NCBI GenBank assembly: GCA_965230995.1 | Contig: OZ246398.1 | Location: 309,204 to 373,203, forward strand | Length of the DNA: 64,000 nt | Direction: 5' to 3' | Source: an uncultured Candidatus Saccharibacteria bacterium | GTDB lineage: Bacteria; Patescibacteriota; Minisyncoccia; Phycocordibacterales; G965230995 | Shown here: positions 15,308 through 48,133 of the stretch, one piece after another | Layout: the number at the start of each line of letters is the position of its first letter | Numbering within the stretch: position 1 is the stretch's first letter | Made by a program: the position numbers and the translations under genes | The notes under the pieces: model-generated | What the model was told of the DNA's origin: nothing | Database searches by the model: none | What the model saw: only the letters and a program-made list of their open reading frames with translations

Positions 15308-15928
15308 ATGGCTGACGCTTTTTCTCTCCATAACGAATATGTAATGGAGAAGATTACCGAACGAGATTGGCAGTTCTACTATCGGGTAGATTGCTATCTT
15401 CGGAGGATTGCACGGTTCTTGATTTCGGTCCCCAAGGAGAAGATGCCATTTGGAAACTGTCATGTTATCTCCATTGCAGTTTCTCGGATTGAGCCCGAGC
15501 TCAAGGTTGAACATGGCTACCTGCTCGGACTCTCGAGGGAGGCAGACGGAACCATGATGTTACAGCCAAAGCAACATTCGTGGCTCGTGACACCTGACGG
15601 GAACATCATTGACCCATACCCTGTATGCATTGCCACAAAAGGCATCATCATGGTGTGTGCAGTCGGCGACGAAGCCTGTTGGGGGGGGGCGGGATGTATC
15701 ACCCCAGCAACGAGATTCGAAATTGGCTCGAGTCCTCGAGGCTTTGGTGGCGACGCGCAGAAGTTTGTCGCCAGATCATTTGTGGAAAGAAACCGGAGGA
15801 CATCGGCAAACATCACTGATAGTCTTCCGAAGATACTGAGCGCCACCTGGGAGGGGCGCTCTTTGTTTTTTCATTTTTCTTTAATGTTGCTTTTTGTTTG
15901 TTGCGGGTATAGACTTGCTTTTGTATGA
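15308..15928 (+). CDS. hypothetical protein in GC-rich island C, possibly a Cys-His hydrolase. Its 3' end is uncertain.
   Basis: ggagg lies 7 nt upstream of the ATG. The hairpin gcgccacctgggaggggcgc plus T-tract at ~15842-15875 falls inside the annotated 3' end, and a G9 homopolymer sits at 15681-15689. Ordered motifs: GNCHVIS ... EHGYLLG ... QHSWLVTPDGNIIDPYP. Confidence 0.4.
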   Translation: MADAFSLHNEYVMEKITERDWQFYYRVDCYLRRIARFLISVPKEKMPFGNCHVISIAVSRIEPELKVEHGYLLGLSREADGTMMLQPKQHSWLVTPDGNIIDPYPVCIATKGIIMVCAVGDEACWGGAGCITPATRFEIGSSPRGFGGDAQKFVARSFVERNRRTSANITDSLPKILSATWEGRSLFFHFSLMLLFVCCGYRLAFV

Positions 15929-18533: not shown

Positions 18534-20025
<1,492 letters not shown>

Positions 20026-20329
20026 AAAACGTTAGTGCTTCTCTACAGGAGCACTAACTGAGAGGTCGGTATTGTGTATCTCGATCGAGTACATAATAGC
20101 CATCTATATGATGGAGATGAGAAAACATCTTTCAAAAATCTATACAGTTCGGAAAGACGAATACTGTAGTGAACGAAACAAAATAGGGAATAAAGCAAAA
20201 AACCGCCATAGGCGGTTTTTTGCTACCTATATATACTTGCTTTTTGCACTTGTTGTGGTATAATACATATTGAAGCCGCCTGGCGTTTCAGGCGACGTAG
20301 TTTCAGGCCCAAACCACAAGGAGTGGGTC

Positions 20330-20827
20330 ATGAAGAGCTTAATGTTGGTGGTAGCAGTGTTGCTTTGCCTCCCCGTCCGTGCGAATGGGGAACTGAGCAA
20401 ACGGATCTCGAGTGAGAGCGACTGGGCGAATGCGTTTGCCCTGATCCTTTCCCTCGAGAGCTCTGGTGGGGAGAAGAACCTCATCGGAGACAAGGGGGAA
20501 TCGTTTGGGTCTTTCCAGATCCAGGACGGGTACTTGCAGGATGCCCTGACGTGGGCGCGCAAGAATCCGTTGGATGAGAACGCCAAGGCGCTTCTCTACT
20601 GGGACAAGAAGCTGAGTGGGCTTACTCCGCAGAAGCTTCTTGGTGCACCGACGACCATCCCATGTAGTATTGTGAGGTGCTATATGGCGAGATGGGCTGG
20701 CCCCCAGCCGACTCTCGAAACGGTTCTCCGTACTCACAACGGTGGACCGAAAGACCCGAAAAAAATCAAAAAATGGGTTGATAAAACTGATCCATACATT
20801 GCGAGGGCAAAGGAGGCCCTCCGGTGA
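20330..20827 (+). CDS. secreted lytic transglycosylase (GH23; VirB1/IagB/P19-like small SLT-domain protein) in GC-rich island D
   Basis: aaggag lies 7 nt before the ATG, and the signal peptide is MKSLMLVVAVLLCLPVRANG. SLT motifs are present: ESSGGE...GESFGSFQIQDGY, ...RCYMARW... and RTHNGGP (AYNxG-like). A hairpin plus T-tract terminator lies at ~20840-20895. Confidence 0.5.
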   Translation: MKSLMLVVAVLLCLPVRANGELSKRISSESDWANAFALILSLESSGGEKNLIGDKGESFGSFQIQDGYLQDALTWARKNPLDENAKALLYWDKKLSGLTPQKLLGAPTTIPCSIVRCYMARWAGPQPTLETVLRTHNGGPKDPKKIKKWVDKTDPYIARAKEALR

Positions 20828-20957
20828 TCTGGACCGTAGCGTGAATCAGGCCGGCACTGTGGTATCCCAAGCGGGAACACGGTGCCGGCCATGACTTTTT
20901 ATACTTGTAACATTGCAGTTTTTTTGGTAGCTTTATGTAGTAGTTTGAAAGTAAACG

Positions 20958-20996
20958 CGCGTGTAGCAGAGCTGGTGATGAGCATTCGACTGACTT
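20958..20996 (+). pseudogene. partial 5' copy of tRNA-Ile (acceptor, D arm and anticodon-stem 5' half only)
   Basis: gcgcgtgtagcagagctggtgatgagcattcgactgac matches the intact tRNA-Ile up to the anticodon stem, then diverges. Confidence 0.4.
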
Positions 20997-21061: not shown

Positions 21062-21135
21062 GCGCGTGTAGCTCAGCTGGCTAGAGCATTCGACTGATAC
21101 TCGAAAGGTCCCAAGTTCGACTCTTGGCACGCGCA
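21062..21135 (+). tRNA. tRNA-Ile (anticodon GAU)
   Basis: Cloverleaf: acceptor gcgcgtg/cacgcgc; D arm tagctcagctggctagagca; anticodon stem ttcga/tcgaa with loop cTGATAc; T arm ccaag-ttcgact-cttgg; discriminator A. No encoded CCA. Confidence 0.85.
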
Positions 21136-21187
21136 CAAAGTAAATTATAATAATTAGCTTTCCATTTATTTTTTTCAGTGTGTTTTT

Positions 21188-39091: not shown

Positions 39092-40258
39092 ATGAAACTT
39101 ACCTATATTGTAAATTCTCGAATACCTACAGAAAAAGCACATGGATATCAGATATGTAAAATGTGCGAAGAATTTTCTTCTGCGGGTGTTAATGTTGAAC
39201 TGGTAATTCCAAATAGGTTAAACATTATAGAGGAGGATGTTTTTAGCTTTTATGGTTTCAAAAAAAACTTTGAAGTTAGAAATATAGACATTATCGATTT
39301 CTTTAAATGGAGAAAGTTTTTTGGTAGCAGGATATGTTTTTATATATCTAGTTTATTGTTTTTTGCTAAGTTACTTTTTTTAAAAATAGAAAATAATTCA
39401 ATAATCTATACTAGAGATGTGTTTATTACGTTTATATTTAGCATAAGGGGATATACAACAGTTTACGAATGTCATGATTGGTTTTCAAAAAGTAAATTTT
39501 TATCGCTTTTTTTATTAAAGAAATGTAATTTTATTATTACAACGAATAGATATATTAAGGAACAATTTGAAAAAAATAATTTTAAAACCGTTTTGGTCGC
39601 TCCCAATGGTGTAGATATTGATTTGTTTGATATTAAAATAAATAGGGAAGAAGCGATTAAAAAAATTTCCCTTGAAGAGAAAACAAAAAAAGAACTCACA
39701 GGCGGAAAGCTGTTAATGTATACAGGAAGCTTTACTACTATGCATCAGGATAAGGGAATAGATGATATATTTAGGGCTCTTAAAATAATTAATGATAAAA
39801 ATATAATCTTTTGTGCGGTTGGGGGTAGTGATAAAGATATAAAATATTACAATGAAATTGCAATGAATATGTCACTGCCTGCAAAAGTTTTTTTATTTGG
39901 GAAAAAAACACAAAGAGAACTGGCTTTATTTCAAAAAATTGCAGATATATTACTTATGCCGTTTCCTAAAAAGGCTCATTATGAATATTTCATGGCCCCA
40001 CTCAAGATGTTTGAGTATATGGCAAGTAAAAAACCAATAATAGCTTCTAAGTTACCATCTATTTTGGAAGTTCTAGATGAAAAAAATTCTTTTCTTGTAT
40101 CCTCCGGTAACCCAGAAAATCTCGCACAGGAGATTATGTATGTATTAAAAAATGTAGATGAAGCAAATTCTAGAGCTGACTTGGCATTTAGGAAAGTATC
40201 AGAACTTTACACTTGGAGAGAAAGAACAAAAAATATTTTATCTTTTATAAAAAAATGA
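39092..40258 (+). CDS. glycosyltransferase family 4-like
   Basis: GT-B C-terminal region FEYMASKKPIIASKLPSILEVL. Confidence 0.6.
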   Translation: MKLTYIVNSRIPTEKAHGYQICKMCEEFSSAGVNVELVIPNRLNIIEEDVFSFYGFKKNFEVRNIDIIDFFKWRKFFGSRICFYISSLLFFAKLLFLKIENNSIIYTRDVFITFIFSIRGYTTVYECHDWFSKSKFLSLFLLKKCNFIITTNRYIKEQFEKNNFKTVLVAPNGVDIDLFDIKINREEAIKKISLEEKTKKELTGGKLLMYTGSFTTMHQDKGIDDIFRALKIINDKNIIFCAVGGSDKDIKYYNEIAMNMSLPAKVFLFGKKTQRELALFQKIADILLMPFPKKAHYEYFMAPLKMFEYMASKKPIIASKLPSILEVLDEKNSFLVSSGNPENLAQEIMYVLKNVDEANSRADLAFRKVSELYTWRERTKNILSFIKK

Positions 40259-42150
40259 AAGAATATCTCATTTATTTTATCTGTATATTAGTCGATTATT
40301 TTTCTCTAAAAAGAAAAAATGGTATTCCTGTTTTAATGTACCATTCCATAGGAGGAAAAAACATTAAAAAAGAGATAGTTCTGGACAAAGAAATATTTGA
40401 GCTTCAAATAAAAACTCTCTTTGATAAAGGATATAAAACCATTATGCCTGGGGATTTGTTTTGTTCACAAAAAAACGAAAAAAATATTATGATCACATTT
40501 GATGATGGTTATAAAGATAATATTGATATTGCCTTTCCTATACTAAAAAAATATGGATTTAAAGCTACTGTTTTTGTTGCGACAAGCAGTATCGGATCTC
40601 CTGGAAAAATGACAATTGATGATTTGAAGTTTCTTTCTAAAGAAGGTTGGGGGATTTCAAACCACACAGAAAATCATCAAAAATTGACCTTGATTTCAGA
40701 CAAAAAAGTAATTGAAGACGAATTCTGTGTAGCAAAGGATAAGATTATAAATATAACCGGGAAAGAAAAAGAGGCTTCTGTATTTGCGTATCCAAATAAC
40801 AGGTACAATGATGAAGTTGTTAAAATATTGAGTCAAGCTGGAGCCGTGATTTGTTTTGCTGGTGGAGAAGGTTTTTTACAATCTGTTGAAAAGCAAAGAT
40901 ATTTTATACCTAGAATTGATGTGTCAAAAAATATTTCATTAACAAAATTTAAGACATTACTTTGTCCGTCTTTCCATTTTTTGAGAAGGATATTCCATTC
41001 TTCTAAAATTATAAGTTTTTCTAAAAAACATCCATTATTTTTTGCTATATCTATTATTCTAATTGTTCGTATAGGTATATTTTTTCTAACATATTTTGGT
41101 TTTCCAGACTTAGGAGGCAACGAAAACGGTTATATTGTTAGATTAAACGGTGATGAATTAGACTATTTTAAATCAGCAAAAGCTCTGCTTGGTTTTAATT
41201 TTATTGCTAACTCTTTTCCTATTGGTTATGCAATATTTTTAGCTCCATTTGTTTGGATCTTTAATGCGGAATCATTGCCAGAGATATTAAAACCAGTGGT
41301 AATTATTCAATCAATCATTTTTTATTCAGCAGTAACACTGATTGTATATAATATTGCAAAAAAAATATTTCAAGAAAAGATAAGATCTATAATAGTTTCT
41401 GTAATATTTTTATTTTATCCATATCTTTTTTATTTTTTCTTTAATTTTTTTGCAGGAAATTCTGACACAATTTTGAACTTTAAAATAACCAGATTTTCTC
41501 AGTTGATGTTTTTTCCAGTGCTCTCTGACCCGCTTTCAATGTTACTAATGGTGTCTTCTTTGCTTTTAATGTTGAACATATACAACAAAAAAAGACCAAA
41601 GACTTCAGCATTGCTTGGTTTTATTTTGTCTTGGGCAGTTATTACAAGATTTCAGAATGCAATCATTGGTCCAGTCTTTGCTATTATCTTCCTTTTTAAA
41701 AAACAATATAAAAACTTTATTTATTATGCTGTCGCGTCAGTTCCTTTGTTATTGTTTCAATTATATGCTAATTTTGATGGTAGTGGATCGCCTTTTAAAA
41801 CAGCTTATGGTGGTCAGTGGGAACAAAGCTTGGGCGCTCCGGCGGTAAGTATAACCTACCCATTAAAAATAATTGAATACGCCTTAAATTATAGCCCTTT
41901 GCTGCTTCTGCCTGTTGTTTTAGGAATGATTTTAATGCTCATTGGTGCGTGGGGTGCTATAAAAAAAAGTGGGGGAAAGGGTGTTATTGTAGCAGTCTAT
42001 ACCTTTTCTATTTTGGGTTTTATTAGCCTTCTTGCCCCAACCTTTCTTAATCCTAGGTATTTCCTGCCGATAATTCCTCTAATAATCATTTTTACTTATT
42101 TAGGAATTGAAAAGATATATATATTAATAAAAGAAAAATATGAATCCTAA
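40255..42150 (+). CDS. polysaccharide deacetylase (NodB homology) fused to a multi-TM C-terminal domain
   Basis: MITFDDGYKDNIDIAFPILKKYGFKATVFV followed by ~10 hydrophobic helices. The start is set to the ATG overlapping the upstream stop (ATGA). Confidence 0.6.
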   Translation: MKEYLIYFICILVDYFSLKRKNGIPVLMYHSIGGKNIKKEIVLDKEIFELQIKTLFDKGYKTIMPGDLFCSQKNEKNIMITFDDGYKDNIDIAFPILKKYGFKATVFVATSSIGSPGKMTIDDLKFLSKEGWGISNHTENHQKLTLISDKKVIEDEFCVAKDKIINITGKEKEASVFAYPNNRYNDEVVKILSQAGAVICFAGGEGFLQSVEKQRYFIPRIDVSKNISLTKFKTLLCPSFHFLRRIFHSSKIISFSKKHPLFFAISIILIVRIGIFFLTYFGFPDLGGNENGYIVRLNGDELDYFKSAKALLGFNFIANSFPIGYAIFLAPFVWIFNAESLPEILKPVVIIQSIIFYSAVTLIVYNIAKKIFQEKIRSIIVSVIFLFYPYLFYFFFNFFAGNSDTILNFKITRFSQLMFFPVLSDPLSMLLMVSSLLLMLNIYNKKRPKTSALLGFILSWAVITRFQNAIIGPVFAIIFLFKKQYKNFIYYAVASVPLLLFQLYANFDGSGSPFKTAYGGQWEQSLGAPAVSITYPLKIIEYALNYSPLLLLPVVLGMILMLIGAWGAIKKSGGKGVIVAVYTFSILGFISLLAPTFLNPRYFLPIIPLIIIFTYLGIEKIYILIKEKYES

Positions 42151-46303: not shown

Positions 46304-48133
46304 ATGAATATTTTGGGAATATCATGTTTTTACCACGACAGCGCAGCATGTCTTGTTAGCGATGGAAAGATTGTATCGGCAGCGCAAGAAGAGAGGTTTA
46401 CACGAAAAAAACACGATCAGGATTTTCCCAAAAAATCTATAGAATTTTGTTTAAAAGAGGCGGGAATTAGTATGAAAGATGTTAACTATATTGTATTTTA
46501 TGATAAACCTTTTCTAAAGTTTGAGAGAATACTTGAAACTCATCTGCGAACTGTGCCGAGAGGTTTGCTCCTGTTTGTCAAAAGTATTCAGGTTTGGATT
46601 AAAAAAAAGTTATGGATTCCGATTGTGATTGCAAAAGAGACTGGCTATACAGGAAAAATATTATTTACAGAACATCACATATCACATGCGGCCTCTGCTT
46701 TTTTTCCTTCGCCGTTTCAGGATGCCGCGTTTCTTGTTGCTGATGGTGTTGGAGAATGGGCAACTACATCTTTTGGTGTTGGTTCAAATAATAAAATAGA
46801 AATAATTTCTGAAATACTTTTTCCTCACTCTATAGGTCTGCTTTATTCTGCTTTTACCTACTATTTGGGCTTTAAAGTTAATTCTGGTGAATATAAAGTT
46901 ATGGGGCTTGCACCATACGGTAATCCAATTTATGTCGATAAAATTTACAAGAATCTTATTGATGTAAAGGATGACGGATCATTTTCTTTGAATATGAAAT
47001 ACTTTGACTACACACACGGTCTCACAATGACAAACAAGAATTTTAATAAACTTTTTGGTGGAGAGCCGAGAAAACCAGAGACAAAAATATCCCAAAAAGA
47101 AATGGATATTGCCAGATCTCTCCAAGAAGTAACCGAAGAAATAATGCTAAAGATTTCTCGCCATATATACAAAAAAACTGGAAAGAAAAATTTGTGTCTA
47201 GCCGGAGGTGTTGCTTTAAATTGTGTTGCAAACGGTCGTATTCTAAGAGAGGGTCCGTTTGATAATATTTGGATACAGCCCGCCTCTGGCGATGCGGGAG
47301 GGGCACTAGGGGCGTCTTTGTATGTCTGGTATCAATATTTAAATAACCCACGCCATGCAGATGGGGTAAATGACACCCAAAAAGGTTCGTTTCTTGGCCC
47401 AGAATACAGCGATATGGATATTCTAAAGAGCCTAGAATCTTTTGGTGGTGTTTCGGATTTAATTAAAGACGAAGATTTGCTATGCCAAAAAACTGCTCAC
47501 TTAATTGAAAAGGGTAATGTTGTCGGCTGGTTCCAAGGGAAAATGGAATTTGGGCCGAGGGCTCTCGGAAGTCGTTCAATTTTGGGTGATCCGCGTTCTT
47601 CGGAAATGCAGACAAAAATGAATTTGAAAATAAAATTTAGAGAAAGCTTTAGACCTTTTGCGCCATCAGTACTGGAAGAAGAAGCTTCAAAATATTTTGA
47701 AATAGATCCTAAACACAATTCACCATTTATGCTTGTTACGGCGAATGTCTTAAAGGAAAAAAGAATGCCTATCAAGAAAGAAGACGAAGAAAGATTATCT
47801 GGTTTCAAAAAATTAGAACTTATTAGATCTATAATTCCAGCAGTCACTCATGTTGATTATTCAGCGAGGCTTCAAACTGTTTCAGAAAAGACTAATTATA
47901 GGTATCATAAATTAATTAAAAGTTTTTATCATCTAACAGGTTGTCCTCTTGTAATAAATACATCATTTAATGTAAGGGGGGAGCCTATAGTCTGTACGCC
48001 TGAAGATGCTTTTAAGTGTTTTATGAGAACTGATATGGACTATCTTGTTATTGGTAATTATATTTTAGACAAGAAGAAACAAAAGGAATTTAATGATAAG
48101 GTTGATTGGAAAAAAGAATATGAATTGGATTAA
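46304..48133 (+). CDS. carbamoyltransferase (NodU/CmcH family)
   Basis: N-terminal MNILGISCFYHDSAACLV...AAQEERFTRKKHD and central ...GGVALNCVANGRIL.... Confidence 0.85.
   Translation: MNILGISCFYHDSAACLVSDGKIVSAAQEERFTRKKHDQDFPKKSIEFCLKEAGISMKDVNYIVFYDKPFLKFERILETHLRTVPRGLLLFVKSIQVWIKKKLWIPIVIAKETGYTGKILFTEHHISHAASAFFPSPFQDAAFLVADGVGEWATTSFGVGSNNKIEIISEILFPHSIGLLYSAFTYYLGFKVNSGEYKVMGLAPYGNPIYVDKIYKNLIDVKDDGSFSLNMKYFDYTHGLTMTNKNFNKLFGGEPRKPETKISQKEMDIARSLQEVTEEIMLKISRHIYKKTGKKNLCLAGGVALNCVANGRILREGPFDNIWIQPASGDAGGALGASLYVWYQYLNNPRHADGVNDTQKGSFLGPEYSDMDILKSLESFGGVSDLIKDEDLLCQKTAHLIEKGNVVGWFQGKMEFGPRALGSRSILGDPRSSEMQTKMNLKIKFRESFRPFAPSVLEEEASKYFEIDPKHNSPFMLVTANVLKEKRMPIKKEDEERLSGFKKLELIRSIIPAVTHVDYSARLQTVSEKTNYRYHKLIKSFYHLTGCPLVINTSFNVRGEPIVCTPEDAFKCFMRTDMDYLVIGNYILDKKKQKEFNDKVDWKKEYELD

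Follow-up and report, generated by a model that had tools for sequence, protein, structure and literature searches.

A probable i-type lysozyme of a divergent, cysteine-poor clade encoded in the 16S rRNA/tRNA-Ile spacer of a Minisyncoccia bacterium

The window analysed here is a stretch of 64,000 nucleotides from an uncultured Candidatus Saccharibacteria bacterium (assembly GCA_965230995.1, contig OZ246398.1, positions 309,204 to 373,203), placed by GTDB in the Minisyncoccia. Between its 16S rRNA gene and its only tRNA gene, tRNA-Ile(GAT), lies a small GC-rich gene whose 165-residue product, P0001, is most probably a member of a divergent, cysteine-poor clade of the i-type lysozymes (destabilases, Pfam PF05497), acting as an exported muramidase. 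This assignment, drawn from sequence comparison and a predicted structure, covers the identity of the protein and its biochemical mechanism; its target is graded separately below. A reading of the same DNA from its letters alone (the "sequence-only reading") had seen in this gene a secreted lytic transglycosylase of the VirB1/P19 kind. Features are given in window positions unless a locus is named, those of the spacer and its flanking RNA genes lie on the + strand, and L and P numbers are our handles for the loci and proteins compared.

A word-indexed search of 5.8 billion proteins returns only P0001 itself and one relative, 53% identical, and an exhaustive phmmer search of 1.8 billion representative proteins yields 41 relatives. 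The Destabilase model of Pfam (PF05497) is matched by 33 of these 41, and the SLT model weakly by ten. A profile built on all 41 finds leech destabilase first among PDB entries (8bbu, 1.8e-26), followed by the bivalve i-type lysozymes 3ab6, 4pj2 and 2dqa (~1e-19), with the transglycosylase MltE at 0.006. A second profile, made from the six closest relatives to avoid circularity (none of the six passes Pfam), retrieves 8bbu at 1.5e-7 and 2dqa at 2.6e-4, and no transglycosylase at E <= 1. P0001 taken singly gives weak lysozyme matches in the PDB with phmmer (0.37), a useful lead; the top match of that search, the designed repeat protein 8erw, was set aside as a low-complexity artefact on the signal-peptide region. 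Modelled with AlphaFold2 and the 41 relatives, P0001 reaches a pLDDT of 94.1 and a pTM of 0.85, and the top six Foldseek matches of the model in the PDB are all destabilase or i-type lysozymes. Among the predicted viral structures of BFVD, the top matches include a "Destabilase [uncultured Caudovirales phage]".

The motifs LES, GxFQI, YMxRW/Y and HNGGP of P0001 align with the animal enzymes, the motifs in common being (L/V)ES, G-x-(F/Y)-Q-I, Y-M-x-R-(W/Y) and HNGGP; the segment LESSGGEKNLIGDKGESFGSFQIQDGY and the string THNGGP are both found in the product. The predicted general acid, Glu43 (codon 20456..20458), aligns with Glu18 of 2dqa and with Glu14 of chain 8bbu (Glu34 in the numbering of the destabilase precursor). 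Asp54 (20489..20491) is the candidate second carboxylate and presumed counterpart of destabilase Asp46, and His136 (20735..20737), within the HNGGP signature, is by alignment the counterpart of His112. Glu43 is kept in 40 of the 41 relatives, Asp54 and His136 in 39 each. In destabilase itself, Glu34 and Asp46 have been described as the catalytic pair, with a role for His112 and a proposed Ser-His-Glu triad (PMC10126035). P0001 shares with the animal enzymes (8BBU, Tapes japonica 2DQA, Meretrix lusoria 3AB6) the best profile and fold match, the Glu, nearby Asp and His, and a small, secreted, single-domain build, export being predicted in its case. It differs from them in falling below the Pfam model when searched singly, in a subfamily-specific helical insert of ~30 residues (about residues 79-112), in the shift of Asp54 by one residue, in its bacterial host and in its three cysteines. 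Animal i-type enzymes possess 12-14 disulfide-forming cysteines. This disulfide-rich scaffold is absent from P0001 and its relatives, which have a median of one cysteine, so P0001 is filed in the cysteine-poor branch of prokaryotes and phages and not with the animal-type enzymes.

The triad of destabilase raises an alternative, namely that P0001 is not mainly a muramidase but an isopeptidase acting on gamma-glutamyl-lysine-type bonds, as leech destabilase does, or a non-catalytic murein binder. The triad residues have counterparts in Ser58 (destabilase Ser51), His136 and Glu43, and in one relative, L009, the frame stays intact without the Glu motif. However, Ser58 is kept in only 23 of the 41 relatives and replaced by Ala in 17, against the near invariance of Glu43 and Asp54; the isopeptidase site of destabilase itself is unsettled (PMC10126035); and the L009 copy is under relaxed constraint (dN/dS 0.43-0.59). 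We hold this alternative to be highly improbable.

The VirB1/P19 label of the sequence-only reading is another matter. In that reading, extended to VirB1/P19/IagB-type enzymes, the protein would be a lytic transglycosylase opening the wall for a type IV secretion system (T4SS) or a pilus machine encoded elsewhere. The small size, the signal peptide and the Glu-Ser motif speak for it, and, 8 kb downstream, the ORF (open reading frame) 28821-30998 encodes a type IV coupling protein domain (TrwB_AAD_bind, 8.3e-8). Furthermore, PMC12102498 indicates that the T4SS of bacteria of the Candidate Phyla Radiation (CPR) may use glycosidases other than VirB1. The Glu-Ser motif does sit on a peptidoglycan glycosidase of lysozyme fold, as had been claimed, but the THNGGP string, taken there for an AYNxG-like motif, is a hallmark of the i-type family, which leaves the VirB1/P19 label unsupported. 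P0001 has no SLT match, its conserved Asp partner is typical of hydrolases, and no VirB4/B6/B8-type genes were found among 27 further window ORFs scanned for T4SS components (24 large ones and three from GC-rich islands, mostly 8-61 kb). In eight syntenic loci, the neighbours are tRNA-Ile or 16S and housekeeping genes, not secretion genes. P0001 is likewise unlike the SLT transglycosylases at large (PF01464: MltE, Slt70; VirB1, P19, IagB, EtgA) in its second carboxylate and HNGGP, and unlike VirB1, P19, IagB and EtgA in having no secretion, pilus or conjugation genes alongside. The SLT family was rejected on these grounds, MltE being also absent from the search with the six-relative profile, and the VirB1-type reading is extremely unlikely. 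The sequence-only reading had itself named best homology to housekeeping MltE/Slt-type enzymes with a host-like composition as evidence against its proposal; what was found is homology to i-type lysozymes and a composition far from that of the host. As an observation apart, the ORF at 28821-30998 encodes a 725-residue coupling-protein-like product, 88% identical in L007, and is followed by cell-surface glycosyltransferase genes.

The gene, the only persuasive ORF of the spacer, spans 20270..20827 as called mechanically and begins with a TTG. This codon lies approximately at the transcription start, which places the true start at ATG 20330; the AAGGAG at 20318-20323 precedes this ATG by a 6-nt spacer, and the homologues start at the equivalent ATG. 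The coding sequence, 20330..20827, ends with a TGA and is backed by homology, profiles, predicted structure and dN/dS. The earlier description thus stands for the ORF at 20270, its GC richness, the aaggag, the size of ~165 residues and the quoted amino acid strings, all found exactly in the product, while its start is moved to the ATG. Judged from sequence comparison, the ORF is a real gene under purifying selection and not a chance ORF, since its homologues are 36-53% identical, dN/dS is ~0.18 and the AlphaFold pLDDT is high. The dN/dS value comes from the comparison of the window with L006 (pN 0.32, pS 0.72), in which synonymous sites are near saturation. A spurious ORF in a GC-rich structural RNA was rejected in view of dN/dS, homology and model confidence; long antisense ORFs over the gene are the usual by-product of GC-rich sequence.

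The N-terminus resembles a signal peptide (residues 1-18, 20330..20383), as the sequence-only reading had noted, and export is probable. Read by eye, it is MKSLMLVVAVLLCLPVRA, with Lys2, hydrophobic residues 4-16 and VRA at positions -3 to -1, followed by NG after the predicted cleavage point. A hydrophobic N-terminal segment is found in all subfamily members, although in some relatives it resembles a signal anchor more; genes for SecA, SecD and SecF are present in the window. A lipoprotein was considered and rejected: Cys13 lies outside any lipobox and is not conserved. The proposed course of events starts from an autonomous transcription unit, in which a terminator hairpin would end the 16S transcript, the gene would be read from its own promoter and a second hairpin would stand ahead of tRNA-Ile. 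Translation would begin at ATG 20330 behind AAGGAG, and the hydrophobic segment would lead the protein through the Sec system, to be cleaved after VRA or retained as a membrane anchor. Outside the cell, the lysozyme-fold domain would cut peptidoglycan in its MurNAc-GlcNAc backbone, Glu43 serving as the acid and Asp54 as second carboxylate; from its family, P0001 is expected to be a hydrolase rather than a lytic transglycosylase.

Several points weigh against this assignment. P0001 by itself has no Pfam match at E <= 10 (SLT PF01464 included) and no NCBIfam match, PHROGs offers nothing useful, and membership of the family is a matter of profiles and predicted structure. Asp54 stands six residues before the G of GxFQI, as compared to seven in the animal enzymes, and the structural equivalence of the two residues is presumed. 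The copy in L009 (257-718) has lost the Glu-containing segment with its frame intact and is catalytically dead; together with a possible degenerate second copy in L007, it indicates that catalysis is not always kept. The GC-rich, host-rare codon usage is not accounted for by an exported lysozyme of this clade. Finally, some cultured Minisyncoccia parasitise archaea, which have no murein, and this would argue against a host-directed role.

The close clade, with 36-53% identity, is rare and comprises the window organism, L006, L007, L008, L009, P0044 and L094; the gene of the window organism is also found on five short Logan contigs and one NCBI contig. The clade is restricted to Minisyncoccia/Paceibacteria-like CPR bacteria, and the genomes nearest to the window are metagenome-assembled genomes labelled Paceibacterota, Minisyncoccia, Taylorbacteria or Parcubacteria, which assigns the window to a CPR/Minisyncoccota bacterium. 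No relative turned up when the GTDB species representatives were searched with the subfamily alignment, and the source genome itself was not matched either. In a rough neighbour-joining tree, computed without support values, the window clade and P0009, an insert-bearing sister sequence from L101, form a separate long branch. The metagenome and viral scans returned the known loci again and one distant phage member. The wider family is large, with at least 2,388 metagenome clusters, and nearly all of the 120 listed carry PF05497. Databases already label prokaryotic and viral proteins as Destabilase; in the searchable literature, nothing was found on i-type lysozymes of prokaryotes or viruses except for a brief reference to a "destabilase" domain among predicted phage lysins.

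Typical members of the wider family are borne by phages, which makes an old phage origin plausible. One lies on a phage-like contig with dUTPase, family-B polymerase, RecA and DnaB, a second among small ORFs with TraR, Cpn10 and HSP20, and a third with HNH, dNMP kinase and PIF1; Cellulophaga phages carry a family member annotated as lysozyme. The Destabilase proteins of phages and uncultured prokaryotes (Cellulophaga phages Calle_1 and phi38:1; A0A6J5P067 of an uncultured Caudovirales phage) resemble P0001 in their cysteine-poor scaffold and in the Glu, Asp and His. They are 120-150 residues long, often devoid of a signal peptide, and encoded among phage replication genes or small ORFs. P0001 differs from them by its long-branch clade, its insert, its export signal and its chromosomal rRNA/tRNA locus. 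The sequence-only reading had asked whether homologues sit in T4SS or prophage loci: no family copy was found in a T4SS locus among the loci that could be read, and phage-like contigs do harbour typical members. As a side observation, a gene-sparse metagenomic contig of 118 kb that looks eukaryotic (L090) carries two Destabilase genes of 207 residues each (4101-4724 and 8001-8624), 3.9 kb apart.

The position between 16S (18534..20022; Rfam SSU_rRNA_bacteria, 1346 bits, full length) and tRNA-Ile(GAT) (21062..21136; ARAGORN and Rfam) had been correctly described, as had the lack of adjoining partner genes. This arrangement is conserved. The gene adjoins tRNA-Ile(GAT) in eight loci, being directly upstream of it in seven and directly downstream of 16S in at least five. 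In every close-clade member with readable flanks, this tRNA gene lies beside the lysozyme gene, immediately downstream except in L094; its orientation is the same in L006, L007 and L009 and inverted in L094. The end of 16S, or a conserved trailer, is found immediately upstream in L001, L006, L009 and L094. The 16S of L094 is 82% identical to that of the window, so the arrangement of 16S, gene and tRNA-Ile is old. In L007, the downstream order is that of the window (Na/Ca exchanger, pyruvate kinase, MurD, MurC). In L101, the gene for P0009 also precedes tRNA-Ile(GAT), with no 16S. A Destabilase gene of the typical type occupies this position in two GTDB genomes found via pyruvate kinase: in L026, the 16S end is followed by a terminator, a promoter, the gene and tRNA-Ile, and in L019 the gene is followed by tRNA-Ile. 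This typical-type copy is 53% identical to a protein from a phage-like contig, and in the tree the L026 and L019 copies nest among typical members, phage-borne ones included. Either two captures at this site or a single one with subsequent acceleration would agree with this topology. The lysozyme gene is absent from L010, L013, L014, L043 and L056 (84-87% 16S identity), and the spacers of L010, L013 and L056 contain unrelated ORFs for small membrane-protein-like products. In L007, an additional GC-rich ORF (929-1345) between the lysozyme gene and tRNA-Ile bears a weak resemblance to the C-terminal half of family members (hhalign probability 15%, E 0.0018).

The spacer also carries a series of structured elements. 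Behind 16S, a block at 20076..20193 is 90-97% identical to L009 and L006, compared to ~68% for the neighbouring spacer, and is presumably a pre-rRNA processing element. It is followed by an intrinsic-terminator-like hairpin (20194..20224; AGCAAAAAACCGCC ATA GGCGGTTTTTTGCT), a perfect 14-bp stem with a T-run and a minimum free energy (MFE) of -21.8 kcal/mol (z -5.5). Compensatory changes maintain this stem, which reads CCGGC/GCCGG in L006 and TCGCC/GGCGA in L009. A sigma-70-type promoter is read from the sequence at 20237..20264, with TTGCTT, a 16-nt spacer, TATAAT and a TGn extended -10 (TGgTATAAT). Its function is predicted, and the scan tool does not list it because the -35 element matches only 3 of 6 bases; L006, L008, L009, L019 and L026 have TTGACT or TTGACA at this position, separated by 16-18 nt from hexamers that resemble TATAAT. 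The 5' untranslated region (UTR; 20271..20329) folds into two hairpins (-26.2 kcal/mol, z -3.1), the second of which (GGCCCA/UGGGUC) presents the Shine-Dalgarno AAGGAG in its loop; the stems recur with different sequences in L006 and L009. Past the stop codon, a GC-rich hairpin with a 13-bp stem (20849..20890; GGCCGGCAC...GTGCCGGCC, then CTTTTTAT; MFE -36.6 kcal/mol, z -5.6) has an outer stem conserved in L006 and L009 and would act as a terminator or a 3' stabiliser. With these hairpins, a promoter of its own and covariation, the gene appears to stand as an autonomous unit, insulated from the stable-RNA genes on either side. Flanks are 90-100% identical between the window, L006 and L009, as against 36-53% for the lysozyme proteins. 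The replacement of a cassette by a distant allele is an unnecessary explanation of this difference: the unconstrained spacer (68% for promoter and 5' UTR, ~58% past the tRNA) is about as diverged as the ORF, which makes functional RNA elements the best reading of the conserved blocks.

Partial copies of the tRNA-Ile gene surround it. A degenerate copy of its 5' half (20957..20993), 105 nt upstream, is found in L006 but not in L009, and, at a distance of 195 nt downstream, its 3' end is repeated exactly over 21 nt (21312-21332). In L009, tRNA-Ile directly precedes the sequence that follows this second 3'-end copy in the window. The copies resemble att-like scars of small insertions that regenerate the tRNA gene, with inserts of merely ~68 and 174 nt. 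The 145-nt segment 21188-21332 begins with the 5' acceptor sequence of tRNA-Ile, ends with its 3' end and folds into an acceptor-like stem with branched arms (-71.3 kcal/mol, z -8.6, 0/200 shuffles). It has no Rfam match and was found in the window organism only, the start of contig L011 having 21 nt of it in common; it may represent a structured RNA derived from a tRNA, or else a second tRNA that has degenerated. No template/variable repeat pair of a diversity-generating retroelement was found.

The base composition of the gene departs from that of its host. Its GC content is 54.6%, compared to 35.8% for the whole window, and its GC at third codon positions (GC3) is 0.657, compared to 0.274 +/- 0.057 for the host (39 long window ORFs). 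An index like the codon adaptation index (CAI), built on 34 host genes of the window, is 0.437 for the lysozyme versus 0.706 +/- 0.041 for these genes (z = -6.6). Lysozyme and host GC3 are 0.66 and 0.25-0.33 in the window, 0.61 and 0.39 in L094, 0.61 and 0.28 in L026, and 0.49 and 0.28 in L007. The lysozyme value is thus high in every AT-rich host despite synonymous saturation between lineages; in the GC-rich host L019, it is 0.59, below the 0.70 of the host. The unrelated spacer ORFs of L056 and L010 are GC-rich too. Two explanations are offered, either selection, acting through host-rare codons that throttle a dangerous enzyme or through an mRNA that resists nucleases, or a slot refreshed from a GC-richer pool.

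Such a composition (GC3 0.66 vs 0.27) and codon adaptation (z = -6.6) would also suit a recent foreign island, in which the gene is the leftover endolysin of a prophage or an integrative element that entered at tRNA-Ile and has no role in the cell. The typical relatives on phage-like contigs and the partial copies of both tRNA-Ile ends around the gene point the same way. Against it, the same clade occupies the same place in a lineage with 82% 16S identity and saturated synonymous sites, which makes the gene old, and it is under purifying selection. A signal peptide and an own promoter are unlike a holin-dependent endolysin, and the gene lies 5' of the tRNA, outside the expected place of a 3'-end integrant. 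No phage genes flank it in the window, nor do any in the eight syntenic loci, and P0001 has no tblastn match among 50,697 phage and 72,556 plasmid records. A recent foreign origin is for these reasons very unlikely. In a different scheme, the stretch just upstream of tRNA-Ile(GAT), in most cases directly behind 16S, would have served over long times as a slot in which small accessory genes of the envelope are replaced again and again from a mobile pool richer in GC, probably that of phages, with the near-invariant rRNA and tRNA flanks as possible homology arms for exchange. The occupation of the slot by the insert-bearing clade, by a typical-type copy (L026, L019) or by unrelated ORFs depending upon the lineage, the GC richness of slot genes in AT-rich hosts and the partial duplications of both tRNA-Ile ends fit this scheme. 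Vertical descent, combined with selection that favours host-rare codons or a stable mRNA, is simpler, and we regard the slot as distinctly unlikely.

As to the target of the presumed muramidase, a dispensable outward use, in which murein of foreign origin, from a host, a prey organism or a neighbour, is digested or scavenged, is tentatively preferred, at somewhat less than an even chance. It is favoured because of the patchy distribution, the fast evolution, the dead copy and the record of the family in animals (defence and digestion) and phages (lysis). Remodelling of the own wall is possible, if doubtful; MurC, MurD and FtsW are encoded, so the organism makes murein on which such an enzyme could act. 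Other roles for the lysozyme are unlikely. In its housekeeping form, self-remodelling would mean an autolysin working during growth and division, whose expression is coupled to the growth rate by its position behind 16S. We consider it conceivable but not probable. Peptidoglycan synthesis, the envelope-related surroundings (FtsW/RodA, MurD, MurC, SecDF, SecA) and the conserved linkage to the rRNA/tRNA locus agree with this. However, the gene is patchy among lineages at similar 16S distance, and it evolves fast: between the window and L007, its dN is 0.64 versus 0.14 for pyruvate kinase (a ratio of ~4.4), and protein identity is 40% versus 80%. The copy of L009 is catalytically dead, the gene is set apart from 16S by the strong terminator with its compensatory changes and by the own promoter, and of all window genes it has the poorest codon usage. 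In favour of an outward use, a lysozyme homologue is reported in PMC12102498 to be essential for epibiotic growth of a saccharibacterium. The case cited there is Ca. Southlakia epibionticum, whose lysozyme and peptidase homologues, encoded beside virB4, are reported to be essential for this growth. P0001, as predicted, would share with that lysozyme the nature of an exported wall-degrading CPR enzyme with a possible role at the interface of symbiont and host; it belongs to a different CPR class and has no linkage to virB4.

The correction of the annotation has consequences beyond this locus. A Glu-Ser motif, a small size and a signal peptide are insufficient for a VirB1 assignment. The i-type family possesses a large cysteine-poor branch in phages and uncultured prokaryotes, and curated models miss a more divergent clade in CPR bacteria. 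P0001 is a candidate for the means by which an ultra-small, probably episymbiotic bacterium cuts its own murein or that of its partner. The persistence of a gene with off-genome base composition in an rRNA/tRNA locus is a small puzzle for the understanding of reduced genomes, be it of their codon usage or of gene flow.

A few further features of the window and of related loci were observed. Enzymes of the polysaccharide deacetylase family can deacetylate peptidoglycan and confer resistance to lysozyme; a 645-residue protein encoded at 40213-42150 carries such a domain (1.7e-24), and its link to the lysozyme is speculative. More GC-rich islands (0.45-0.54 GC) occur at 283-639, 15308-15928, 25503-25820 and about 47200-47600, with small ORFs devoid of Pfam matches and a codon adaptation of 0.48-0.51 versus 0.71 for the host. 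One of them lies at the MurD/MurC junction, and L007 is GC-rich at the same junction (7501-7800), with no detectable similarity between the two. The rRNA genes are split and permuted: 23S and 5S (4472-8441), encoded on the + strand like 16S, precede it by 10 kb that contain protein genes. The 23S gene is 3.76 kb long and contains a group I intron at 6489-6772. Large insertions are found inside 16S in L010 and L043, the latter also displaying a fragment of a group II intron just after 16S.

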